From Nanobdellota archaeon (GTDB lineage Archaea; Nanobdellota; Nanobdellia; SCGC-AAA011-G17; JACPIM01): 36,491 bases of DNA. How positions within the stretch are numbered: position 1 is the stretch's first letter; each line of letters begins with the position of its first letter. The notes beneath the pieces were generated by a model. The model was not told the origin of the DNA and did not search any database. It saw nothing but the letters and a program-made list of their open reading frames with translations. This document shows, one piece after another, positions 2,917-35,037 of the stretch. The position numbers and the translations under genes were made by a program. The stretch is from positions 1 through 36,491 of the forward strand of contig JBBSWZ010000075.1 in assembly GCA_038046025.1 (NCBI GenBank), in the 5' to 3' direction.

Positions 2917-5775
2917 TTATACTCCTTTAAGATTAGTTATCTTATTCCCTTCACAATCTAACACTATGGATGATGAATTTTTAATATTATCGTATAAATT
3001 GCCACATCCAATTGCTGCTGGCAATCCAAATTCAGCACATCTTATAGACATATGTGAAGCTACTCCTCCATATTTAGTTATTAAACCAGCGGGATTTTTT
3101 GTGAATATCCAATCATATCCTGGGTCTCCATTCTCTAATAAAACAATCTTTCCCTTTAGGTCTGGTATTTCTTCTTTTTTTATTTTATTTAGATCAACTA
3201 GATCAGCGTAAATTTTTTTATTGGTTATAAAATTGGGCTTTGCTGTGAATTCAGATACTACATCAATATCTTTTTCTGAAAGTATTACTGGTGGTAAGAT
3301 TAGTTTTCTATTTATTTCCCTTTCTTTTTTTCTAGTTTCAATTAATTTTAAAAAAGACTTTTGTATTTCTTCTAAATTTTCTACATCTATTAGTCTAAAT
3401 AGATTTTCCAAAGCTAAAAAAGCCAAATCCTTTCTGGATAAGCTAATTTTTTCCCCCGCCTTTGCTATTAATTCTAAGGCTTCACTTAAATTCCTAGAAA
3501 ATTCAAATTTAGATAGCTCTCTTGCTTCTAAAGATTTTTTTATAAATTCGAATAATAATTCTGAGTTAATATTTAAGTTGTGTGAATTTAATTCTGATGA
3601 AATTTTATTGTGTATCTCTTGTGGTATTTTGAATGATGGTTCTTTATATTGTGATGATTTAAGATTAGAAAATAGGCTTGGATTAGAATCATATCTTAAG
3701 TTTGTGATATCATAAGTTCCTGGTCTTAGATGTCCATAGTTTTTTAAGAATTTTTCTTTTGTTAATTTTTTTTGTGTTAGTTTGTGAAAATCCTTAGTTA
3801 GCTGTTTTGCAATTGTATTTATAGAGTTTAAGAAAGAGTCATAAAATTGTTGATCTATCAAATTCCTATTTAATAGACTTTTTAATATTATTTTGCTTAT
3901 AAAAGCTAATCTGGCTATTCTAGAAAAGTGCAATGTTCCTTCCTTACAGCTTTCAAGAAGCCTTTTAGCTTGCTGTATTAGTTCTTGAGGAGTTAAATCT
4001 GATTTAAGCTCTATCTCTTTTACTTGTTCTCTTACAGATCTCATAGATTTTATCGAAGATAGATCTTTTTCTATTAAATCTTTATTTAGAAGGTTATTAG
4101 TTAATTTAATTAGTTCTTCTCTTAGTTCTTTTATTTCATTATAACTAAAATGGTTTTTTAGTTCTTTTATTCTTTCATCGAAAGTCAGATCATAACATGT
4201 ATAAAGAATATCAAATTCTACTTTGTCCTGTAATTCTGGATTGTTTTTTAATTTTTTTAAGTAGAAATTTACTAGTTTTTCTGATAGCGAATCTGATAGC
4301 GAATCTGGAATGAATGAATTAAAGTCATTTCTAACATTAATATATGGTTTGTTTCCAAATAGAACAAGAAGTTTGGCTGGTGAAACTTTTCTGTAGCCCT
4401 GATATGATCTTGCTTCATGCCATATCGAATCTGTAATTATAAATGAATATAAAGAATAGGCTAAGTGATTTGGGCTGTCTCCTATAATTTCAGCTGGATT
4501 CCAGTCTGGCATATCTGCAAAATGATTTTCATAACCAAAAAGATGATCTGGTTTACTAGATAAAGTGTGGAAGTTTTGTTTTAATTGATCTATTTTGTTT
4601 TTTACTTCTTCATCTAAACGAATATCTTTTTCTAAATTTACTGTAACTGGTCTTACTTGGAATATGATTATTTCTTTATTATCATTAATTGCAAATTCTA
4701 TGTCCAGTGTTAAATCTGGTATTAGGGATTCAATTTCATTTACTGATGTGATTAATTTTTTGAATAATTCCGGAATATTTTTTGGATCAGCAAATTTAGA
4801 AATCTTAATTGTTTTGTTTTCTTGACCTTTTGTTACTGTATCTGTTGAAGTTGTTTTATTATCATAATTTATTACATAATAAGGAGCATTATTTTCTAAG
4901 GATCTTGTGAAAAGAACTCCACTCATAATAATGTTTTCTGTTTGTTTTTGAATTAATATTTGATCTTTTGAATTTCTTGATTTTTTATTTGAATATGATT
5001 CAATAACTTTTATTATTGCGTTTTCTATTTCTCTTTTATTTTCAGATGAGATGTTTAATTCAGAATGAAAATATCCGGCCATTGAAGATTTTGTTGTGTC
5101 CTCCGTAATTGCTGAACTTCTAACTACAACCTTAGATGGGTTAAATGTATTTTGTACATTTTCTAGGATTCTTCCTTTGTTATTTTTCCAATCTAAAACT
5201 GTAAATGAATAAATTTCTTCTATTTTTGAATTTTTTAGTAGAGGTTTAAGATTTTTTAGAGTTTCAGCTTTAGTTGAGATTATTGATTGTTTAATCTCTG
5301 ATTTTTTGAAGTTTCTTAGTTTGAAAAAATTTGTAAATTCACCTAAATTTTGGAACTTTCCTTTATATTTATCAAGTAGGGTTGTTATTAGGTTTAAATC
5401 TGAAAATTGGTCATAGTTAGGATGTTTTATTATTTTTCCATTGATTGAGTTTAAGTAATCTGATTCTGGGAAATAATTGTAGTCTTCACTCCTAACCAAG
5501 ATTATTTCTGAATTTGGAAACTCTTTGTGTATTTTTTTTAGATTTTCTGTAGAATCTCTGCTTTCTTGTAAAATAACTCTATCAACACATTTTAAATTTT
5601 CAATTACTGCTTTTCTTTCATCTGGAGTTATGATAGATTCATCTGTTAAAATGCTACAGACATGAAAATCGGCTTGATTTTGGGCAAATTTTAAAGCTCT
5701 TAAATGTCCAAAATGGAAAAAATCTGTAGCTATTGTAGAATATGCTATTTTCCTAATTTTACTAGCTTCTACCAT
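2917..5775 (-). CDS. Fusion protein: HxGH cytidylyltransferase-like domain + PPDK_N ATP-grasp + PEP-utilizer phosphohistidine (swivel) domain
   Basis: The N-terminus has ...TDFFHFGHLRALKFA...CSILTDE..., a TagD/CTP_transf_like HxGH motif. The middle has VVVRSSAITEDTTKSSMAGYF, a PPDK_N/PEP-synthase ATP-grasp signature. The C-terminus has LITKYGGVASHMSIRCAEFGLPAAIGCG, the GG-x-x-SH phosphohistidine mobile domain. The track start 5781 is TTG. The first ATG is at 5773-5775. Confidence 0.75.
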   Translation of the reverse strand: MVEASKIRKIAYSTIATDFFHFGHLRALKFAQNQADFHVCSILTDESIITPDERKAVIENLKCVDRVILQESRDSTENLKKIHKEFPNSEIILVRSEDYNYFPESDYLNSINGKIIKHPNYDQFSDLNLITTLLDKYKGKFQNLGEFTNFFKLRNFKKSEIKQSIISTKAETLKNLKPLLKNSKIEEIYSFTVLDWKNNKGRILENVQNTFNPSKVVVRSSAITEDTTKSSMAGYFHSELNISSENKREIENAIIKVIESYSNKKSRNSKDQILIQKQTENIIMSGVLFTRSLENNAPYYVINYDNKTTSTDTVTKGQENKTIKISKFADPKNIPELFKKLITSVNEIESLIPDLTLDIEFAINDNKEIIIFQVRPVTVNLEKDIRLDEEVKNKIDQLKQNFHTLSSKPDHLFGYENHFADMPDWNPAEIIGDSPNHLAYSLYSFIITDSIWHEARSYQGYRKVSPAKLLVLFGNKPYINVRNDFNSFIPDSLSDSLSEKLVNFYLKKLKNNPELQDKVEFDILYTCYDLTFDERIKELKNHFSYNEIKELREELIKLTNNLLNKDLIEKDLSSIKSMRSVREQVKEIELKSDLTPQELIQQAKRLLESCKEGTLHFSRIARLAFISKIILKSLLNRNLIDQQFYDSFLNSINTIAKQLTKDFHKLTQKKLTKEKFLKNYGHLRPGTYDITNLRYDSNPSLFSNLKSSQYKEPSFKIPQEIHNKISSELNSHNLNINSELLFEFIKKSLEARELSKFEFSRNLSEALELIAKAGEKISLSRKDLAFLALENLFRLIDVENLEEIQKSFLKLIETRKKEREINRKLILPPVILSEKDIDVVSEFTAKPNFITNKKIYADLVDLNKIKKEEIPDLKGKIVLLENGDPGYDWIFTKNPAGLITKYGGVASHMSIRCAEFGLPAAIGCGNLYDNIKNSSSIVLDCEGNKITNLKGV

Positions 5776-8694: not shown

Positions 8695-9795
8695 ATGAAG
8701 GTGAATTTTGTTGATATTACAAGACAAACTGAATCTATTAGGGAAGAAATAGACAGAGCTATAGCTAAAGTGATAGATAGTTCTGGTTTTATTTTAGGTG
8801 AGGATGTTGAGTTATTTGAGAAAGAATTTGCTTCGTATTGTGGAGTTAAATATGCTTGTGGTGTTGATAATGGCACTAGTGCTTTAGAATTAATTTTAAG
8901 AGCTTTAGGTATTAAAGAAGGTGATGAAGTAATAACTCAAGCTAACACTTTTATTGCTACTTCAACTAGTATTGTTTCTGCTGGTGCTAAGCCTGTTTTA
9001 GTTGATATTAACCCTGAAGGTTATCATTTAGATGTTAATAAAATTGAAGAAAAAATTACTAATAAAACTAAGGCTATAATGCCTGTCCATTTGTATGGAA
9101 ATCCGTTTGATTTTGATGCTATTAAAGAAATTGCTGAAAAATATAACTTGAAGATTGTGGAAGATGCGTGTCAAAGCCATGGTGCTAAATATAAAGGTAA
9201 AAGAGTCGGAAGTTTTGGTGATGCTGCAGCTTTTTCATTTTATCCCGGAAAAAATTTAGGTGCTTTTGGTGATGCTGGTATGGTTGTTTCTAATGACGAG
9301 AAATTGATTAATGATATTAAAATGATGAGAAATTACGGGCAATCTAAGAAATATCATCATGATTTTTTACCTTTGAATAGAAGATTAGATGCTTTGCAAG
9401 CTGCTGTATTAAGGGTTAAGCTAAAACATTTAGATAAATGGAATAAGATGAGGAGGAATAATGCTAAATTGTATGGTGAATTGTTGAGTAATAATGTTAA
9501 AGTTCCTAAAATTTCTAGTAATAATGAATCTGTTTATCATTTATATGTTGTTCAAACTAAAAAAAGAGATGAATTACTTAAGTTTTTTGAAAAAAATGGG
9601 ATCAGTGCTGGAATACATTATCCTGTTCCAATACATTTGCAAAAACATTTTGATTATTTAGGTTTTAAAGAAGGTGAACATCCTAATACTGAGGAAGTTT
9701 CTAAGAGAATAATTTCTTTGCCTATGTTTCCTGAATTAAAAAAAGAAGAAATTGAATTTGTATGTGAAAAAGTTAAAGAATTTGTTAGTAAGTGA
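8695..9795 (+). CDS. DegT/DnrJ/EryC1/StrS-family PLP-dependent sugar aminotransferase
   Basis: 366 aa. GVDNGTSALEL, ...VEDACQSHGA..., and FSFYPGKNLGAFGDAG with the canonical Schiff-base Lys. A TATA-like TTATATAT (8658-8665) lies upstream. Confidence 0.85.
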   Translation: MKVNFVDITRQTESIREEIDRAIAKVIDSSGFILGEDVELFEKEFASYCGVKYACGVDNGTSALELILRALGIKEGDEVITQANTFIATSTSIVSAGAKPVLVDINPEGYHLDVNKIEEKITNKTKAIMPVHLYGNPFDFDAIKEIAEKYNLKIVEDACQSHGAKYKGKRVGSFGDAAAFSFYPGKNLGAFGDAGMVVSNDEKLINDIKMMRNYGQSKKYHHDFLPLNRRLDALQAAVLRVKLKHLDKWNKMRRNNAKLYGELLSNNVKVPKISSNNESVYHLYVVQTKKRDELLKFFEKNGISAGIHYPVPIHLQKHFDYLGFKEGEHPNTEEVSKRIISLPMFPELKKEEIEFVCEKVKEFVSK

Positions 9796-23287: not shown

Positions 23288-23605
23288 ATGAGATTACATC
23301 CTATTAAGATACCTAAAAATTTGAATTTTATTGAAGTTGAAGATTTTAATAAACCTATAGTTATGGATAAGAAGTGTTTTCTTTTAATTAGGTTGAAGAA
23401 TGAGAAAATTGAGGTTGGAATTTGTAATTATAAGTATGAGATGATTAAAGCTTATAGGGGTAAGGATAATTTTGCTTTAGCTAAGAAGATATTAGATGAT
23501 GGGTGGATATCTAGATTAGATCATGCTGCTTATTTAGGTAGGGAACTTGCGAATGCTAAGAATTGTTTAGAGAATGGGAAGGAATATGTTCAGGAAGGTG
23601 CTTAA
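23288..23605 (+). CDS. DUF4346-like small protein
   Basis: ...CFLLIRLKNEKIEVGICNY...AYRGK...ISRLDHAAYLGRELANAKNCLENGKEYVQEG matches my recollection of the DUF4346 pattern (GYF.I......I.v.hY ... HAaYLGRELakAE..L..g..YvQD). The track start 23279 is GTG. ATG 23288 lies 24 nt after a TTTTATAA box (23257-23264). Confidence 0.45.
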   Translation: MRLHPIKIPKNLNFIEVEDFNKPIVMDKKCFLLIRLKNEKIEVGICNYKYEMIKAYRGKDNFALAKKILDDGWISRLDHAAYLGRELANAKNCLENGKEYVQEGA

Positions 23606-25035
23606 TTTTCAACAAATATCTTAGCTGTTTGAGAACCTACAAATTTTCTCGTTATTTCTGATTTCATTAAAACTTTATTTAGAACAACGTCTTTTACAAA
23701 TTCATATCTTAATGCTAAATATGCTAGATCTCCGAAGGTACCTAATTTACTTAATCTTCTTTTTAGTGCTTTTCTTTTGATTTTTCTTGAAGCTATTCTT
23801 GCTAATTTTAATGCTTTTTTTCTTTCTTCTGCTGAAAATTCTGGAGTTGCAAAAACAGGTTCATCTCCAAAGTAAGGAATTTCTTTAATATATTCTTCTG
23901 GTGGAATTATAAATAACCCTTTTTCTTTTACATAATCATATAATTCTGTTCCTGGATATGGAACTGTGTTATAGAAATTAGCACCACAAATAGGATATTT
24001 TAATGCCAAGTTAATTGAATCTTGTACGTCTTCGAAAGTTTCAGATTGATTCCCAACTTGGAAGAATAAAAAGACGTCAAATCCAAGTTCTGTTGATAAT
24101 TTAATTGCATCATCAATTTGTTCTATTGATTCACCTTTTTTCACAGCTTGTAAAACTTTATTGTTTCCTCCTTCAACTCCAAAAGAAACATATTTGAAAC
24201 CTGCTTGTTTCATTTTAGTTAAAACTTCTTGGTCAACCATATCTGCTCGAACGCCATCGCAAGCAATAGTCACTTTTAATCCTGATTCTATAATTTTGTC
24301 TGAAATTGCTATTACTCTTTTTTTATTTAAAGTAAAGTTATCATCTATTATATGAAAATATTTGAAACCTTTATTATTCCAATATTTCATTTCTTCTAAA
24401 ACATTATCTGATGTACGTGAACGAAATGGCATTCCAGATGCAAGTTTTACAGAACAAAAAGTACATTGATATGGACAACCCCTTGAAGTGACTAATGATA
24501 TACTTGAATTTTTGTATTTATCAAATTCACATTTTTCATATTTTGGAAATGGTAATTCATCAAGATTATGTATAAATGGTCTATTTTCATTTTCAATTAT
24601 ATTATTTCCGTCTCTGAAAATAAGATTTTGAATTTCCCTTAGATCCTTTCCTTTGCATAATTCAAGTAATGGAAACTCACCTTCAAGTTTAACTCCGAAA
24701 TCTGCTTTACATTCTCTTAGTACTTGAGTCTTTAATGTTGAAACATGAGGTCCTCCTGCAAATACTGTAAAACCTTTTTCTTTTAATGTGTCAACCACTT
24801 TGTAGCCAATGTCTCTGTTATAAGTTGTTAAAGAAACTGCTACTAGATCTGGGTTAAATTTCTTTATTTTTTTTAATGCTTGTTCTAGAGTATAGCCTAG
24901 ACGCATATCAATAGTGGAATTATCAATACCATGTTTGATTAAGAACTCTGATAAGTACCCAATTCCAGCATGTGGAAAATCTGGATAGTAGAACTGTTGT
25001 GCTGGTATTATGAACATAACTTTGTTAAATCTCAT
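23602..25035 (-). CDS. B12-binding-domain radical SAM enzyme (class B type)
   Basis: 477 aa. The N-terminal Rossmann-like cobalamin-domain layout is ...DLVAVSLTTYNR...VFAGGPHVS. The radical SAM cluster motif is TSRGCPYQCTFCS (C-x3-C-x2-C). Confidence 0.8.
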   Translation of the reverse strand: MRFNKVMFIIPAQQFYYPDFPHAGIGYLSEFLIKHGIDNSTIDMRLGYTLEQALKKIKKFNPDLVAVSLTTYNRDIGYKVVDTLKEKGFTVFAGGPHVSTLKTQVLRECKADFGVKLEGEFPLLELCKGKDLREIQNLIFRDGNNIIENENRPFIHNLDELPFPKYEKCEFDKYKNSSISLVTSRGCPYQCTFCSVKLASGMPFRSRTSDNVLEEMKYWNNKGFKYFHIIDDNFTLNKKRVIAISDKIIESGLKVTIACDGVRADMVDQEVLTKMKQAGFKYVSFGVEGGNNKVLQAVKKGESIEQIDDAIKLSTELGFDVFLFFQVGNQSETFEDVQDSINLALKYPICGANFYNTVPYPGTELYDYVKEKGLFIIPPEEYIKEIPYFGDEPVFATPEFSAEERKKALKLARIASRKIKRKALKRRLSKLGTFGDLAYLALRYEFVKDVVLNKVLMKSEITRKFVGSQTAKIFVEN

Positions 25036-28733: not shown

Positions 28734-29318
28734 ATGAATACTGATAATACTAAGGATACGGAAGGTGAAAATTTAATTGCAGATTTTTTTGAGGAGAGGG
28801 GAATTGGATATGTGCCATATAAGGAAATTAAAGATCTGAAGGAAGATGATAAATTTTTTCGAGTCTCAGATTTCTACTTACCCGACTATAAGGTGTATGT
28901 TGAATTCCTAGGTCAATGGAACAATCCCAATCACAAAAAGAGATACCAAAGGAAAATAGCAATATACAATGCCAATAATATTCTATGTGTATATCTATGG
29001 CCAAACAATTTGGGTAATTTAGACTGGATAATAAAAAGGAGAATTACTGCTGCTTATTTGAAGCACAATAAGAGGTGGTTGTTATTTAAATATGAACTCT
29101 TTAAATATATAGAAGAACGAGGATTGCCTGTATTTGTATTGGGAATACTAATTTATTATTTGAATAGTTTTCCTGCGAAAATAGTATTCGGTGCTCTTTT
29201 GCTGATTCATCTTTTCACTTCTTTAAAGAAAAGTATTAAAAGGATTTACACAATTAAAAGATCTGAATGGGTCTCTGGATCCAAATATAATAATGTGTAT
29301 TCTGAAGAACAAAACTAA
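28734..29318 (+). CDS. Hypothetical membrane protein with an N-terminal PD-(D/E)xK-nuclease-like core
   Basis: 194 aa. E..IADFFEERGIGYVPYKEI...RVSDFYLPDYKVYVEFLGQW... resembles the restriction-endonuclease-like fold seen in Vsr, DUF559 and the helicase IV N-terminal domain (Y.yE....PDFyLp...iyiEy.G). Two C-terminal hydrophobic helices (LPVFVLGILIYYL; IVFGALLLIHLF). Confidence 0.35.
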   Translation: MNTDNTKDTEGENLIADFFEERGIGYVPYKEIKDLKEDDKFFRVSDFYLPDYKVYVEFLGQWNNPNHKKRYQRKIAIYNANNILCVYLWPNNLGNLDWIIKRRITAAYLKHNKRWLLFKYELFKYIEERGLPVFVLGILIYYLNSFPAKIVFGALLLIHLFTSLKKSIKRIYTIKRSEWVSGSKYNNVYSEEQN

Positions 29319-30397
29319 ATCTGTGCTTGATTTTTATAACAAGTTGCACAAACTAAGTCTAGTTTAGGATCTGGTTTGTAATTTTTTCTATTTAACATTC
29401 TAGCCGCAATATATTTTTCATTATTCCATATTTCCATAAATGGAGTTTCATTTACATTACCAAAATCAAACTTTTCATGCCAGATAGCACAACATGGTGA
29501 AACGGAACCGTTAGGATGAACCATTGCTTGAGTCCAAAGCCAGATGCAGTCATCATTTCTTATGTTTTTCTTTTCTTTTTTAGAATAATTATACATTGAG
29601 TAACCTTCATCAGTTGGTAAAAAGTCTTTTGCACTTTCAAATTGTTTATCATTATCCATTAATACTTCACGACCCATATCACATCTGAAAGGAGCTAGTT
29701 CTAATCTATCTACTCCAATTTCTTTAGCCATTTTTTGTGCTTTAGGTATTTCATGTTCATTATGTTTTGTGACTATAAATCTCCATTGTACAAATGGTTT
29801 CTTACTTTTCAGTTTTTTCTTCATTTTAACAATTTTTGTCATGAATTCTATTCCTTTTTCAAAATTGCTTCCTACTTGATATGTTTCCACTGATTCTTGA
29901 GATGCTCCGTCTAGGGAAACGATTAGTAAACCAAGTTGGGATTCTACTGTTTTTCTTATGATTTCATCATTAAATACCATTCCATTGGTGCTTAACATTG
30001 TGTGTATCTTTTTTTTATTTGCGTATTCAATCATGTCAAATAAATATTTACTTAAGAAAGGCTCACCCCAACCATATAAATCAACTTCGAAAGTATAATC
30101 TCCTACTTCATCAATAACTTTTTTGTATGTTTTCCATGGTGTCATTGCTTTTGTCCTTCCTTCTAGTCCAATACCTGTTGGGCAATGTTTGCATTTTAGA
30201 TTACATAGATTAGTTGGATCTATTTTGATTCTAAAAGGATAACTAGTAAGTTTAGCTCTTTTTAGAAGCTTCCACTGTATTACCGCTGACAGAACATTGT
30301 ATTTTCTTTTCATAGTGGAGTTTTCAGCAAACATAAATTGGCCCATTCTAACTACAGCTTTCTGCAGTACGTTTAGATTATTGATAAATCCTCCCAT
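29315..30397 (-). CDS. Radical SAM enzyme with C-terminal SPASM/twitch-like Cys-rich domain
   Basis: 360 aa. The cluster motif is CNLKCKHCPTG (C-x3-C-x2-C). GWGEPFL. The C-terminus has CIWLWTQAMVHPNGSVSPCCAIW...FGN...LVCATCYKN, typical of SPASM auxiliary-cluster domains. An AAGGTG SD lies upstream of ATG 30397. Confidence 0.75.
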   Translation of the reverse strand: MGGFINNLNVLQKAVVRMGQFMFAENSTMKRKYNVLSAVIQWKLLKRAKLTSYPFRIKIDPTNLCNLKCKHCPTGIGLEGRTKAMTPWKTYKKVIDEVGDYTFEVDLYGWGEPFLSKYLFDMIEYANKKKIHTMLSTNGMVFNDEIIRKTVESQLGLLIVSLDGASQESVETYQVGSNFEKGIEFMTKIVKMKKKLKSKKPFVQWRFIVTKHNEHEIPKAQKMAKEIGVDRLELAPFRCDMGREVLMDNDKQFESAKDFLPTDEGYSMYNYSKKEKKNIRNDDCIWLWTQAMVHPNGSVSPCCAIWHEKFDFGNVNETPFMEIWNNEKYIAARMLNRKNYKPDPKLDLVCATCYKNQAQI

Positions 30398-30437: not shown

Positions 30438-31730
30438 TTATAAGTATTTCTGTAAGAAAGAATCGAAAGTTGAGACTACAAAATCCCTCATTTCTCTGGT
30501 TAAACCTGGCCAACAGCCTATGTAGAATGAGTTTTTAGAGAAAAATTCTGTATTTGGAAGTTCTGAGGACCTATGCTTTATGTTTAAAAATGCTGGATGT
30601 TTGATTAAATTTCCTCCTAATAAAGGTCTTGTTTCTATATTATGTTCATTTAAATGTTTGATTAGCGCTTCTCTTTTAAATGGGGTATATTTTTTTATTG
30701 TGATTGGGTAAGAAAACCAGCTTGGTGAAGAATTGTTTGTTGCTTTTGGCAAAGTTAAGAATTTCTCATATTTTTTTAAGTTTTCATTATAGAAATTTAC
30801 GTTTTCCTGTCTTTTTTTAATAAATTGATCTAGTCTTGGTAATTGTTGTAGACCAATTGCTGGTTGTAAGTCTAGCACTCTTAATTTGTAACCTGGGTTC
30901 ATTGTCACTGTCCTTTCATCATAATCTGGAAGTTTTGAAAGTTCTTCCTCCCATGCAGGATCTTTATTTTGGTTTCTAATATCATAAACTCCACAGGTTT
31001 TTAATGATCTTATTGTTGGAGCAAAAGAAGCATCTTTCATTGTAATTGCACCACCTTCCCCCATAAAAATTGCATGGGCTCCATGAAATGAGAAACATCC
31101 TAGGTCTCCAATTGTACCAACTTTTTTTCCATTGTAAATTGCTCCATGAGCACCACAACAATCTTCTATAACAAATAGATTATGTTTTTTAGCTATCTCC
31201 ATAATTTTATTCATCTGCGCTGGATTTCCTAAATGATGTGTAACTAAGATAGCTTTTGTTTTTTCTGAGATCATGTTTTCAATTAAATCTGGATTTAGAT
31301 TGTAATTTTCATCTACATCGACAAAAACAGAAGTTAGATTATTAAGAACTATTGAACTTAAGTTTGTTGAGAATGTTAAAGCTGATGTTATTACTTCGTC
31401 TCCTTCATTTAAATGATTTTTAATAAATTTATTTTTTAAAGTTGATAAAGCTAATAATAAAGCTGATGATCCTGAATTAACTAAAACTGTTTCTGGGATA
31501 TTGTTATAATTAGACCATTCTTTTTCAAATTGTTCTGTGTTTTTTCCTTCTGGCAACCAACCTGATAATAAAACGTCTATTGCTGCATTTAATTCTTTTT
31601 CATCATAAATTGGCTCGCAATAAGAAATTTTTCTTTGTTTTGGTATGAAAACATCTTGTTTTTTCTGAAGTTTTAGAAATTTTGCTACATTATTATAAAT
31701 TTCTTGTTTAATTTTATCTGATTCAGTCAT
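30438..31730 (-). CDS. DegT-family PLP/PMP enzyme with Lys->His active site (ColD/E1-type sugar 3-dehydratase-like)
   Basis: 430 aa. VNSGSSALLLAL, VIEDCCGAHGA. FSFHGAHAIFMGEGG aligns without gaps to FSFYPGKNLGAFGDAG of the aminotransferase at 8695..9795, placing His219 (codon CAT, reverse complement of 31074-31076) at the Schiff-base Lys position. Confidence 0.75.
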   Translation of the reverse strand: MTESDKIKQEIYNNVAKFLKLQKKQDVFIPKQRKISYCEPIYDEKELNAAIDVLLSGWLPEGKNTEQFEKEWSNYNNIPETVLVNSGSSALLLALSTLKNKFIKNHLNEGDEVITSALTFSTNLSSIVLNNLTSVFVDVDENYNLNPDLIENMISEKTKAILVTHHLGNPAQMNKIMEIAKKHNLFVIEDCCGAHGAIYNGKKVGTIGDLGCFSFHGAHAIFMGEGGAITMKDASFAPTIRSLKTCGVYDIRNQNKDPAWEEELSKLPDYDERTVTMNPGYKLRVLDLQPAIGLQQLPRLDQFIKKRQENVNFYNENLKKYEKFLTLPKATNNSSPSWFSYPITIKKYTPFKREALIKHLNEHNIETRPLLGGNLIKHPAFLNIKHRSSELPNTEFFSKNSFYIGCWPGLTREMRDFVVSTFDSFLQKYL

Positions 31731-32413
31731 CTTACTATTCTAACAGGCATGAATGCTTCTGCTGCTTTTATACCTACTTCTGCTCCTCTTTTTTTTGCTA
31801 ATACTTCTAGGTATTCTACAGATCTTGGGAATGGGAATTCTCGTAATTCATCTTTATAGGCTTTCATTGCTTCTATTTTTTTATACAATGTTTTTTCTAC
31901 ATTAACATAAACTGAAGGTATGAAAGCGTTTGCTGGATGTGGAGCAACCCATTCTGTTGATGACGGGACTTCGTAACATAATATTTCAGTTGGTCTATGT
32001 TCCCAAACTGGTCTGCATGCTGTAACTGTTGCCCTATGTAGAATAGAATGATCAATATTTAATTCTGCTGATCCATGAGTATAGATTATATCTGGTTTTA
32101 TTTTTTCAATATATTTCATTATTAGTTTTACAAAGTCAATTAATGGTGTTTGATCAAATATTAAACCACGCTTTCCTATAACTTCGAAACTTTTTATTCC
32201 TAGAATTTTAGCTGCATCCATTGCATGATCTTTTATTGCTTGTACTTTTTTAGCTACTTCTTCTGTATATTCATCATAACGAGCAGAAACTCCATCTCCT
32301 ACTATAACTACATGAACTTCATCTCCTTGTTCTGCATGTTTAGCTATAGTTGCTCCAGCTCCCAAGGTTTCATCATCAGGATGAGCTCCTATTACTAGTA
32401 TCTTTTTATTCAT
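31727..32413 (-). CDS. PIG-L/LmbE-family de-N-acetylase
   Basis: MNKKILVIGAHPDDETLGAGATI (the AHPDDE signature), ...HVVIVGDG..., ...HSILHRA.... I chose the internal ATG at 32411-32413 because the longer track ORF (to 32476) would overlap the upstream gene by 56 nt. ATGA overlap with the downstream gene. Confidence 0.8.
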   Translation of the reverse strand: MNKKILVIGAHPDDETLGAGATIAKHAEQGDEVHVVIVGDGVSARYDEYTEEVAKKVQAIKDHAMDAAKILGIKSFEVIGKRGLIFDQTPLIDFVKLIMKYIEKIKPDIIYTHGSAELNIDHSILHRATVTACRPVWEHRPTEILCYEVPSSTEWVAPHPANAFIPSVYVNVEKTLYKKIEAMKAYKDELREFPFPRSVEYLEVLAKKRGAEVGIKAAEAFMPVRIVR

Positions 32414-32420
32414 TTTTTTA

Positions 32421-33167
32421 TTATTTTTTAAGATCCTTTTTAAAGTTTTGTAGATCATCATGAATTGAAAAATCAATATCTGGTTCTAAATAAAGGTCTT
32501 TTGGTCTTCGAATTTCTTTTTTTTCTTCTTGTGATTTAGTTGAGATTACCCTTGATTTGTCTATGTTAAAAATTTCACAAACTTTTAATGCAAATTCATA
32601 AAAGGATAGCTTTTCTTTTGTTACTACATTTAAAATTCCCGTTTTATCTTTTAATTTAAAAATATAATCTGCTAATGTTCCCATGTAAATGGGATTGAAA
32701 AATTTATCATTATAAGCATTTAAATTTTCTTTTGTGTTTAGTAGTTGATTTATAATAAAAGTTTTTGTATCATAAATATCTGTTCTAATTACTAAGCCTT
32801 CTTGTGAAGCAAATGCTTCAGATGCTAATTTTGACCATCCATATTCATTTACTGGCTTTAAAGTATAATTTGATGAGAAATGGATTAACTTAGCGTTTAC
32901 TTTTCTTGCTGCTTCTACTAGGTATTTTACTGCTAATGTATTTACTTTCCAACATTCTTCTGGATTTTTATTACAATACTCGATATCAGTTATTGCTGCA
33001 CAATTTATTATTAAAGAAGGTTTTTCTTTTAGGATTAGATTAGTTATTTGTTCTTTGTTTGAGATATCAACTTTATCTTTATCATAGCCTATAACTTCTG
33101 GATGTTTTTTTAATATGAAAGAGGCTAATCTCCCTTTTGATCCTAATAATAAGATTTTTTCTTTCAT
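32421..33167 (-). CDS. Short-chain dehydrogenase/reductase, RmlD-like (NDP-4-keto-sugar reductase type)
   Basis: 248 aa. The N-terminal ILLLGSKGRLASF is a degenerate Gly-rich loop. ...INCAAITD.... Catalytic Y-x3-K in NEYGWSKLASE. Confidence 0.6.
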   Translation of the reverse strand: MKEKILLLGSKGRLASFILKKHPEVIGYDKDKVDISNKEQITNLILKEKPSLIINCAAITDIEYCNKNPEECWKVNTLAVKYLVEAARKVNAKLIHFSSNYTLKPVNEYGWSKLASEAFASQEGLVIRTDIYDTKTFIINQLLNTKENLNAYNDKFFNPIYMGTLADYIFKLKDKTGILNVVTKEKLSFYEFALKVCEIFNIDKSRVISTKSQEEKKEIRRPKDLYLEPDIDFSIHDDLQNFKKDLKK

Positions 33168-33168
33168 T

Positions 33169-34230
33169 TTAAATTGGCTGTCTAAATTCTTGAGGACCTA
33201 AATGTTTAACTGTATCTTCTTGTGTTGTTCCTGGTTTATCAAGCCAACCTCCTTGCCTTAGTAATATTTTTATTTCTTCTTTGTTTAGTTGTCTAGTATT
33301 TACAGAACTAAATGCGTCTGGTAAACTTGTTTTTTTATGATTTTTATAGTGTTCTTTAATACCTGGAACTTCTACTGATGGTAGAACTATAAAATAATGT
33401 TCATCATCTATTATATTGTTTCTTTCATGTTTTGATAATAATACTTCATCAATTTTTTCTCCTGGTCTTATCCCAATTGTTTTTATGTTTGTTTTGTTAT
33501 TTCCTAATTCCTCAATCATGGCTTTGATTAGATCTGTGATTTTCATTCCTGGCATCTTCATTACGAATAACTCACCACCAAATGATTTTTCTAATGCTTT
33601 GAATATTAAAGAAACTGCGTCTGATAAAGTAAAAATAAATCTGGTCATTCTTTCATCTGTTAATGTTATTTCATTATTTTCAAGAATTTGACGTTTAAAT
33701 AATGGTATTACAGATTCAGATGAGCCTATAACGTTTCCTCCCCGAATATATGAGAATTTTGTTATGTGATGTTCTGAGTTTGCAGCAATTGTTAGTTTTT
33801 CAGCACAATTTTTCGTTATCCCATATAAATTATATGGTTCGCAGGCTTTATCAGATGAAACTCCTATTACTTTTTTTACATTGTTTTGAATTGATGCTTC
33901 GATTAAATTTTGAGTTCCTATTATATTTGTTCTTATAGCTTCAATAGGTTGAGCTTCGCAAATATGAACATGTTTTAAGGCTGCTAAATGAATTACGTAA
34001 TCAACTCCTTTTAATGAAGAGGATAATCTTTCTTTGTCTCTTACGTCTCCTATTATAAATTTTAGAACTTTATTGTTTTGATATTGTCTTTGCATTAAAA
34101 CTTGCTTGTTTTCATTTCTGCTATATACCCTAATTTCTTTAGGATTGTATTTTTCTAATAGTTGTCTTACTAGTTCTTGCCCCCAAGAACCGGTTCCTCC
34201 TGTTACAAGTATAGTAGAGTTATCAAACAT
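33169..34230 (-). CDS. PseB/CapD/FnlA-like NDP-HexNAc 4,6-dehydratase (extended SDR)
   Basis: 353 aa. ILVTGGTGSWGQELVRQLL, IHLAALKHV, SSDKACEPYNLYGITK (Y-x3-K), and RGGNVIGS...RMTRFIFT, typical of the polysaccharide-biosynthesis CapD/PseB clade. Confidence 0.8.
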   Translation of the reverse strand: MFDNSTILVTGGTGSWGQELVRQLLEKYNPKEIRVYSRNENKQVLMQRQYQNNKVLKFIIGDVRDKERLSSSLKGVDYVIHLAALKHVHICEAQPIEAIRTNIIGTQNLIEASIQNNVKKVIGVSSDKACEPYNLYGITKNCAEKLTIAANSEHHITKFSYIRGGNVIGSSESVIPLFKRQILENNEITLTDERMTRFIFTLSDAVSLIFKALEKSFGGELFVMKMPGMKITDLIKAMIEELGNNKTNIKTIGIRPGEKIDEVLLSKHERNNIIDDEHYFIVLPSVEVPGIKEHYKNHKKTSLPDAFSSVNTRQLNKEEIKILLRQGGWLDKPGTTQEDTVKHLGPQEFRQPI

Positions 34231-34278: not shown

Positions 34279-35037
34279 TTAATAGTATTTATTATCTAGG
34301 GCAGGAACTTTGATGTTTGGTCTTTTTGTTGCAACTATTAATGTTACTGCCTCTTTATTCAATTCATTGGGTTCTTTTCTGATCCAGTGCTTTCCTTCTT
34401 TTACATAGAATTTTTGCTCTTCTATGACAAACTCTTTGAATAAATCTTGGATATCTTCTTGACCATAGACGCGACCTTCAGATCTTACTTGAGATTTACC
34501 AAATGGTGTTGTTAAGATTAATCTTCCATCTGATTTTAATATTTTATAGATTATTTTTAAACATTCTTTATCTTTTCTATTATCTTCCTTTCCTGGTTTT
34601 TCTCCTAAAGCATATTCTAGGCCCATATGTTCTATTGTTGATATGCATGTAACTACATCATATGATTTATCTTGAAACGATAATTTTGTTATGTCTCCTC
34701 TTTGTAGTGTAAAGTTAGGATGTTCAAATGGATATTTTTTTATGTCTAATCCTGTAACTGTATGACCTAATGATGCCATTTCTAATGGTAAGATAGAATC
34801 AGCACATCCTATGTCTAGGATTTTAGATTTTACATTTGGTAGATGGTTTAATGCAAATGGCCTTTCTATTATTCGTTCATTTACGTTGTAATTCATTAAT
34901 TTAGTTTTAAATAAGAATATCTTTGATAATTCTATGAATCCTTTTAAAATTCTAGTTGGTTTTCTTGATATTAAATAGAATGAAAGAGGATAATTTAGGT
35001 ATTTGTAATTATTATAAAACCAAGATTGAAATCCCAT
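34279..35037 (-). CDS. Class I SAM-dependent methyltransferase
   Basis: 252 aa. Motif I is ILDIGCADS. ...TGLDI.... YDVVTCISTIEHMG. Confidence 0.7.
   Translation of the reverse strand: MGFQSWFYNNYKYLNYPLSFYLISRKPTRILKGFIELSKIFLFKTKLMNYNVNERIIERPFALNHLPNVKSKILDIGCADSILPLEMASLGHTVTGLDIKKYPFEHPNFTLQRGDITKLSFQDKSYDVVTCISTIEHMGLEYALGEKPGKEDNRKDKECLKIIYKILKSDGRLILTTPFGKSQVRSEGRVYGQEDIQDLFKEFVIEEQKFYVKEGKHWIRKEPNELNKEAVTLIVATKRPNIKVPALDNKYY

Follow-up and report, generated by a model that had tools for sequence, protein, structure and literature searches.

Removal of the C-3 hydroxyl group from nucleotide sugars is known to proceed by two routes that both use pyridoxamine 5'-phosphate (PMP). E1 and SpnQ depend on a [2Fe-2S] cluster, with a four-cysteine motif, for one-electron reduction, whereas ColD has neither motif nor cluster, releases its product by hydrolysis and is regenerated by transamination from glutamate (PMC8987622). 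The characterised 3-dehydratases act only on substrates linked to cytidine, guanosine or deoxythymidine diphosphate (CDP, GDP, dTDP) (PMC8987622), and in 303 archaeal genomes most rare monosaccharide pathways, among them those for 3,6-dideoxyhexoses, were not detected (PMC7725333). In the literature that we searched, we found neither a 3-deoxygenation pathway starting from uridine diphosphate N-acetylglucosamine (UDP-GlcNAc) nor an archaeal 3,6-dideoxy sugar. Here, we present an analysis of a gene for an E1-lineage 3-dehydratase homologue (P0001) that lacks the cluster-binding cysteine loop, located in a 36,491-nucleotide stretch of a Nanobdellota archaeon (contig JBBSWZ010000075.1 of assembly GCA_038046025.1; hereafter the window). 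The corresponding metagenome-assembled genome (MAG) comprises 0.76 Mb in 79 contigs and is 82% complete; it encodes an archaeal ribosomal protein S28e, while no 16S rRNA was found in the assembly.

The comparison with E1, ColD and the sugar aminotransferases rests on the following features:

30438..31730, minus strand: E1-lineage, His-type, PMP-dependent nucleoside diphosphate (NDP)-sugar 3-dehydratase homologue without the [2Fe-2S] loop (P0001; Pfam, NCBIfam, PDB, AlphaFold2, Foldseek and trees)
31076-31074, minus strand: CAT codon of His219, aligned with the Schiff-base lysine position of aminotransferases
30945..31001, minus strand: shortened loop, residues 244-262 (LKTCGVYDIRNQNKDPAWE), in place of the CxC...C [2Fe-2S] loop of E1 (alignments)
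8695-9795: Lys-type DegT aminotransferase, carrying the comparison motif FSFYPGKNLGAFGDAG

The open reading frame (ORF) of P0001 translates without stops into 430 residues, which is close to the 437 residues of E1, as an earlier note made from the sequence alone had pointed out. By an ungapped alignment of FSFHGAHAIFMGEGG, the first residue of which is residue 213, that note had also placed His219 at the position of the internal-aldimine lysine, and both the comparison motif, which is indeed carried by the window's Lys-type DegT aminotransferase, and the position were borne out by profile alignments. In HMMER alignments, His219 stands opposite His220 of E1 (PDB 3bcx; Lys in the H220K mutant, 3bb8), His188 of ColD and the Schiff-base lysine of the archaeal sugar transaminase 7b0d. 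Across 272 aligned homologues and controls this column holds His in 267 and Lys in three, the latter all of aminotransferase type and including the window's own DegT aminotransferase; no alignment shows a lysine at this position of P0001. Further, a family alignment of 71 sequences has 30 invariant columns, His219 among them, and all 30 residues are retained in P0001 and in the relatives that share its shortened loop. The match at His219 is not a matter of chance. Two E1-type relatives without the Cys loop have the catalytic histidine replaced (P0181 by Arg, P0242 by Gln), and these proteins may have become pseudoenzymes or catalyse a different reaction.

P0001 was assigned to the Pfam family PF01041 (DegT_DnrJ_EryC1; 1e-92, residues 42-421). 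Its best NCBIfam model was RfbH (NF011936), with 411.2 bits and thus under the equivalog cut-off of 423, followed by PseC (TIGR03588), which with 221 bits stayed far below its cut-off of 423.5, and other aminotransferase models scored far lower than RfbH. The best PDB sequence match was E1 (3bcx, E 9e-91), with ColD and aminotransferases at 1e-46 or weaker. The AlphaFold2 model, based on 71 homologues, had a predicted local distance difference test score (pLDDT) of 94.5 and a predicted template modelling (TM) score of 0.92, and its sole weak stretch was around the shortened loop (residues ~250-280, pLDDT 62-85). E1, ColD and sugar aminotransferases all matched this model in Foldseek with TM scores of 0.78-0.95, E1 being the top match (TM 0.92-0.95, E 2e-51) and ColD scoring ~0.82. 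In a FastTree tree of 147 rows, all His-type rows were split from three Lys aminotransferase rows (support 98), and the cluster-free ColD clade (19 rows, support 99) did not include P0001, which was placed inside a large E1-type clade. An IQ-TREE tree of 43 rows, computed after removal of the loop columns and with ColD as the outgroup side, likewise placed P0001 on the E1-type side (100/99), and in neither tree did it cluster with ordinary aminotransferases. Alignment, fold and trees thus agree with the proposed membership of the E1/ColD/SpnQ group of His-type, PMP-dependent 3-dehydratases, and we are highly confident that P0001 is a His-type 3-dehydratase.

The [2Fe-2S] motif of E1, in the 2004 account by Agnihotri and co-workers, reportedly reads C193-x57-C251-x-C253-x7-C261, and we take these four residues, with this numbering set onto the 3bcx alignment, to be the cluster ligands. 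The search for this pattern, which the earlier note had proposed, was negative: only the C193 equivalent is present in P0001 (Cys192), while Asp stands in for C251, Lys for C261, and C253 is deleted. The absence of the three equivalents stems from a shortening of the loop, with RDCYCAPGCDNTC in E1 compared to the shorter, Cys-free VYDIRNQNK in P0001. Although of E1 lineage, P0001 is therefore not a canonical E1. His195 was considered as a compensating cluster ligand and ruled out, since it is conserved in cluster-bearing siblings as well.

The Cys loop is also missing in the closest relatives, P0002 (79% identity) and P0003/P0004 (64-65%), as well as in the orthologues of loci L064 and L066, which were found via the neighbouring gene of the PIG-L family. 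In contrast, more than 110 other homologues retain CxC...C, and the next-nearest, mostly archaeal homologues (46-55% identity) have a Cys-richer loop, CGRACxCx3C...C. As the Cys-less loop was seen in six independent metagenome assemblies, including that of the window, it is not an assembly artefact. Cluster-free His-type enzymes make up 74 of 267 across the wider family, and the cluster-free state is as such common; what is particular here is that the loss took place within the E1 lineage, while siblings in the same cassette still bear the cluster.

In the IQ-TREE tree, a Cys-less clade of four (100/100) lies inside a clade of 29 rows (99/97), 22 of which have the Cys loop; this larger clade is itself nested in the cluster-bearing E1-type side. 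Given this nesting among cluster-bearing relatives, the loss would most simply be secondary. The other Cys-less rows of the subclade (P0026, P0028/29) fall elsewhere in this maximum-likelihood tree, P0028/29 being sister to the cluster-bearing P0025/27 (98/95), a topology that suggests at least two losses of the Cys loop; a single clade uniting all Cys-less rows was not rejected by the approximately unbiased (AU) test (p 0.19-0.24). The Cys-less clade is under strong purifying selection, with ratios of nonsynonymous to synonymous substitution rates (dN/dS) of 0.049 (L007 vs L066) and 0.11 (window vs L005), the remaining orthologue pairs being saturated. The clade differs at 15 positions with a conservation of at least 85% elsewhere, including T222F, three residues past the catalytic histidine, R248V/G, R259A/K and Y276T, and these changes suggest an altered active-site chemistry or substrate.

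In a sample of 400 genomes of the phylum, an E1-like homologue was present in 33, none of them above 42% identity, and no homologue was found in the two same-genus and four same-family genomes of that sample. A search for further clade members by related loci gave only 28-31% matches in genome contigs and none in metagenome contigs. The biological reach of this sporadic island gene, with no close copy in the 400 genomes, is therefore limited. That the sugar class is unreported for archaea, as stated earlier, remains true of glycan structures and of cultured genomes within the literature searched (PMC7725333). It is not true at gene level, where RfbH-annotated homologues are common in archaeal MAGs and the 33 genomes above also carry a homologue. 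Many E1-like representatives are fusions of 660-830 residues with either an extra N-terminal domain of 290-330 residues or an extra C-terminal domain (P0122, P0124, P0127, P0129, P0143, P0137, P0140 and P0154).

The E1-like gene is the fifth of six genes in a minus-strand operon, the other members of which are:

34279..35037, minus strand: class I S-adenosylmethionine (SAM)-dependent methyltransferase, first gene of the operon (Pfam Methyltransf_11/31/23)
33169..34230, minus strand: homologue of PseB-type UDP-GlcNAc 4,6-dehydratases with the catalytic motif SSDKA...YGITK (Pfam Polysacc_synt_2, 3e-98)
32421..33167, minus strand: short RmlD-like short-chain dehydrogenase/reductase (SDR) of 248 residues with a YGWSK motif, a predicted 4-ketoreductase (Pfam RmlD_sub_bind, 4e-32)
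31727..32413, minus strand: PIG-L/LmbE-family de-N-acetylase, 228 residues from ATG 32413, with an AHPDDE motif (Pfam PIG-L, 3e-23)
29315..30397, minus strand: radical SAM/SPASM protein, last gene of the operon (Pfam Radical_SAM and SPASM)

The 4,6-dehydratase that the gene was said to follow is thus part of the same operon, but the RmlD-like reductase, whose PDB matches are dTDP-4-dehydrorhamnose reductases, and the PIG-L deacetylase lie between the two. The stop of the PIG-L gene and the start of the E1-like gene overlap as ATGA. The mechanical start of the PIG-L ORF, TTG 32476, overlaps the RmlD-like gene by 56 nucleotides; since PIG-L orthologues have 227-228 residues, ATG 32413 is the likely start. 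The best PDB match of the radical SAM/SPASM protein is BtrN, the radical SAM dehydrogenase of butirosin biosynthesis, in the auxiliary-cluster domain only. A BtrN-like radical SAM enzyme is likewise found with a PIG-L deacetylase and a DegT-fold enzyme in aminoglycoside pathways. Elsewhere in the window, a B12-binding radical SAM gene lies at 23602-25035 on the minus strand, and homologues 27-32% identical to it are found in the islands of L008, L060 and L062 together with the archaeal E1-like subclade.

Among the neighbours of the E1-like gene, PIG-L is the most strictly conserved. It lies directly upstream in all five readable loci of the Cys-less clade (the window, L005, L003, L064 and L066), L007 being cut on that side, and the orthologues in L003, L005, L064 and L066 show 68-85% identity, similar to that of the dehydratase itself. 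The cluster-bearing P0023 (L065) is also paired with a PIG-L gene, which has 51% identity and overlaps the gene start, and the pairing would therefore be older than the loss of the loop. The RmlD-like gene adjoins the E1-like gene in all related loci compared, a PseB-type dehydratase 46-49% identical to that of the window is present in L003, L064, L066, L008 and L062, and the methyltransferase is also part of the L003, L064 and L066 cassettes. In L062, the PseB-like, short RmlD-like and cluster-bearing E1-like genes have the same order as in the window, and next to them is a separate, classical NDP-hexose module, in which a second E1-like paralogue (40% identity) is accompanied by a nucleotidyltransferase and two GDP_Man_Dehyd-type SDRs. 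Elsewhere in the phylum, the SDRs beside E1-like genes of at most 42% identity are all generic, with 23-30% identity to the PseB-like protein.

Two E1-like paralogues within one glycan island were observed in L062 (947-7332) and L061 (2546-7362), one belonging to a classical NDP-hexose module and the other to the PseB-like/RmlD-like module. In the P0003/P0004 branch (L003 1089-10199; L064 1799-10962; L066 536-7438), the cassette comprises a PseB-like gene, a family 2 glycosyltransferase (GT2), a methyltransferase, a class I/II aminotransferase of ~384 residues, PIG-L, the Cys-less E1-like gene and an RmlD-like gene; the extra aminotransferase could aminate a 3-deoxy-4-keto product. A further PIG-L subfamily (P0330; L067/L068 6001-6681), 47% identical to the protein of the window and very large, with more than 7000 matches at E<=1e-20, adjoins NeuB, a CMP-sugar synthetase, a formyltransferase and an ATP-grasp enzyme in nonulosonic-acid clusters, a context that would fit, by analogy, an involvement of PIG-L in 2-N-acyl exchange on UDP-6-deoxy-HexNAc-type intermediates.

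In L005, an orthologue of the radical SAM/SPASM gene (71% identity) occupies the corresponding position, but none was found beside the E1-like orthologues in L003, L007 and L064, and the L066 record, which ends within 0.5 kb, is uninformative. In a genome of the same order (L053), a flippase and a glycosyltransferase lie between a 44%-identical radical SAM gene (3748-4821) and an E1-like gene, and given this separation it looks like a general island gene. We treat the radical SAM/SPASM gene as an accessory outside the conserved core.

Additionally, the MAG was searched for the components of the classical pathway. At its 82% completeness, neither the CDP-glucose 4,6-dehydratase RfbG nor the glucose-1-phosphate cytidylyltransferase RfbF was found above cut-off, the best matches to the RfbF and RfbG models reaching 91.5 bits (cut-off 300) and 124.6 bits (cut-off 278), and neither E3, the AscD-type [2Fe-2S] flavoprotein reductase, nor any Fer2 domain was found. 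The sole FNR-like protein (FAD/NAD-binding, NAD_binding_1) has 236 residues and no Fe-S domain, and is encoded beside a TIM-barrel-like gene (G000:C70:3282-3992; L063 1282-1992, minus strand). NeuB (PseI-type) was not found in the MAG; PseH, PseG and PseF were not searched for.

We propose, as a reading with an even chance of being correct in all its parts, that P0001 is an E1-lineage enzyme which has lost its cluster and which, by analogy with ColD, would carry out a non-reductive 3-deoxygenation of UDP-4-keto-6-deoxy-hexosamine or its N-acetylated form (UDP-4-keto-6-deoxy-HexN(Ac)), leading to a 2-amino- or 2-acetamido-2,3,6-trideoxyhexose. The substrate itself is probably derived from UDP-HexN(Ac). 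With no cluster in the protein and no E3-type reductase found, the most likely form of release would be hydrolytic and ColD-like, for which we see the balance as level. In this scheme, the PseB-type enzyme would convert UDP-GlcNAc to UDP-2-acetamido-2,6-dideoxy-hex-4-ulose, the C4 keto group of which would form a Schiff base with the PMP of P0001. His219 would then take the C4' proton and the C3 hydroxyl would leave, after which the ene-intermediate would be hydrolysed as in ColD, yielding the 3-deoxy-4-keto sugar and ammonia, and PMP would be regenerated from an amino acid, e.g. glutamate. The RmlD-like enzyme would reduce C4, PIG-L would strip the 2-N-acetyl group either before or after the C3 deoxygenation, and further tailoring may come from the methyltransferase and the radical SAM enzyme. 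The product would be UDP-2-amino- or UDP-2-acetamido-2,3,6-trideoxyhexose for an archaeal surface glycan. The earlier note had expected the operon to make a 3,6-dideoxy (amino)hexose; a classical 3,6-dideoxyhexose is not what we predict, and the trideoxy sugar takes its place because the dehydratase partner is of the UDP-GlcNAc type (Polysacc_synt_2).

Several points weigh against this proposal. P0001 is outside the ColD clade, and ColD-like chemistry would therefore have to be convergent, while the 15 changed positions, T222F among them, mean that the chemistry may differ from that of both E1 and ColD. Cys191, Cys192 and Cys246 remain, may lie near one another and could form an unconventional metal or cluster site. 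The PseB-like enzyme scores 360 bits on the NCBIfam PseB model, under the cut-off of 408, and the related enzymes in L006 and L061 are accompanied by other SDR types. The context is partly unreadable, as L005 and L007 both end at contig ends, and with a MAG that is only 82% complete the absence of E3, RfbF and RfbG is unproven. Finally, the function of the whole Cys-less subclade is a prediction.

The other readings differ in the chemistry that they assign to P0001. It could act as a transaminase or in other PMP- or pyridoxal 5'-phosphate (PLP)-dependent chemistry such as 4-amination or epimerisation, with a 4-amino-4,6-dideoxy-HexN(Ac) as the product. SpnQ shows aminotransferase activity without a reductase (PMC8987622), as does the E1 H220K mutant, PseB-type dehydratases usually pair with a 4-aminotransferase, the residue aligned with E1 Y217 is His in two clade members, giving the FSFH seen in PseC-type enzymes, and conserved residues close to the active site are changed. 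However, His and never Lys is strictly kept, the characterised His-type members are all 3-dehydratases, and ColD and E1 lacked transferase activity under SpnQ-like conditions (PMC8987622); moreover, no NeuB was found in the MAG, and a genuine Lys-type DegT aminotransferase is encoded elsewhere in the window. We regard this reading as unlikely, and the pseudaminic-acid pathway, with PseB and a PseC-like enzyme, was rejected given the His in place of Lys and the lack of a NeuB match. Reductive, E1-like deoxygenation, with electrons for the PMP-glucoseen intermediate supplied in trans by the auxiliary clusters of the radical SAM/SPASM protein or by a general ferredoxin, would suit the E1 lineage of P0001 and the place of the radical SAM/SPASM gene as the next gene of the operon, which is shared by the L005 orthologue. 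To our knowledge, no case is known in which PMP receives electrons from a cluster of a separate protein, and no Fer2 domain was found in the MAG. The general cellular reductases used by SpnQ might seem a parallel (PMC8987622), yet SpnQ itself still needs its own cluster. The gene is not beside the L003, L007 and L064 orthologues and its L053 homologue, only loosely linked, looks like a general island gene, which weakens the radical SAM/SPASM protein as an obligate redox partner; deoxygenation of this kind is, in our estimate, improbable.

The remaining two readings are far less probable. A canonical E1 (RfbH/DdhC) that acts with E3 on CDP-4-keto-6-deoxyglucose towards a classical 3,6-dideoxyhexose would explain why E1 and RfbH come first among the database matches and why size and fold agree; with three of the four cluster cysteines absent, a score under the RfbH equivalog cut-off, UDP-GlcNAc-type neighbours and none of RfbF, RfbG, E3 and Fer2 found in the MAG, we reject it as very unlikely. 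That P0001 is a decaying or non-catalytic E1-type relic hardly seems credible: the loss of a cofactor loop is a change of a sort known from pseudoenzymes and P0181 and P0242 have lost the histidine, but in the Cys-less clade the frame is intact, the family-invariant residues are all kept, dN/dS is 0.05-0.11 and the translational coupling to PIG-L is conserved.

If cluster-free, ColD-like deoxygenation is correct, the sugar class would be new to archaeal glycans, and the lineage would represent a natural evolutionary experiment in which an E1 was turned into a ColD. The Cys-less clade and its cluster-bearing siblings, at 47-55% identity and in the same cassette, offer matched natural pairs for finding the residues that switch a reductive to a non-reductive enzyme. 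The cassette points to a 3-deoxy amino sugar derived from UDP-GlcNAc, which would extend the surface-glycan chemistry of small-genome, DPANN-type archaea. It is possible, although rather doubtful at this stage, that P0001 and its five orthologues constitute a fourth substrate class of 3-dehydratases, specific for UDP-HexN(Ac), of E1 lineage and cluster-free by secondary loss, with a 2-amino-2,3,6-trideoxyhexose as the product.

Compared with the known systems, P0001 is most similar to E1 (the CDP-6-deoxy-L-threo-D-glycero-4-hexulose 3-dehydrase AscC/DdhC/RfbH of Yersinia pseudotuberculosis and Salmonella; PDB 3bcx, 3bb8), with which it shares 38% identity in the structural alignment, a similar length including the N-terminal helix, the position of the catalytic histidine, the EDCC motif with the C193 equivalent and the same side of the tree. 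Unlike E1, it is without C251, C253 and C261, has Ala in place of the second histidine of E1 (H221) and Phe in place of T223, and has UDP-GlcNAc-type enzymes and PIG-L as partners, no E3 or CDP-glucose genes having been found. ColD (WbdK, the GDP-4-keto-6-deoxy-D-mannose 3-dehydratase; PDB 2gms, 3b8x, 2r0t, 3gr9) also has His at the Lys position and no Fe-S cluster, and its mechanism is therefore the only documented one available to a cluster-free enzyme. ColD differs, however, in its separate clade, with 27-28% identity in structural alignments and a TM score of ~0.82, its length of 390 residues without the N-terminal extension, its RAHGW-type loop and its GDP-mannose-derived substrate. SpnQ, the dTDP-4-keto-2,6-dideoxyglucose 3-dehydratase of the spinosyn forosamine pathway, was compared by description: it is of E1 type, has no dedicated E3 and uses a C2-modified substrate, showing that the E1 lineage tolerates changes at C2 and of partner, but in contrast to P0001 it keeps the [2Fe-2S] motif, needs ferredoxin/flavodoxin reductase systems and acts on a dTDP-linked substrate (PMC8987622). 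PseC, the UDP-4-amino-4,6-dideoxy-N-acetyl-beta-L-altrosamine transaminase and usual partner of PseB, is likewise a DegT-fold protein and would, like P0001, take the PseB product as its substrate, but it uses a Schiff-base lysine. Nearest to P0001 are the enzymes of the cluster-bearing archaeal cassette (P0008 in L062, P0015 in L008 and P0023 in L065; 47-55% identity), in which the order is likewise PseB-like, short RmlD-like and E1-like; these proteins keep the Cys-rich loop CGRACxCx3C...C, whereas the clade of P0001 appears to have lost it.

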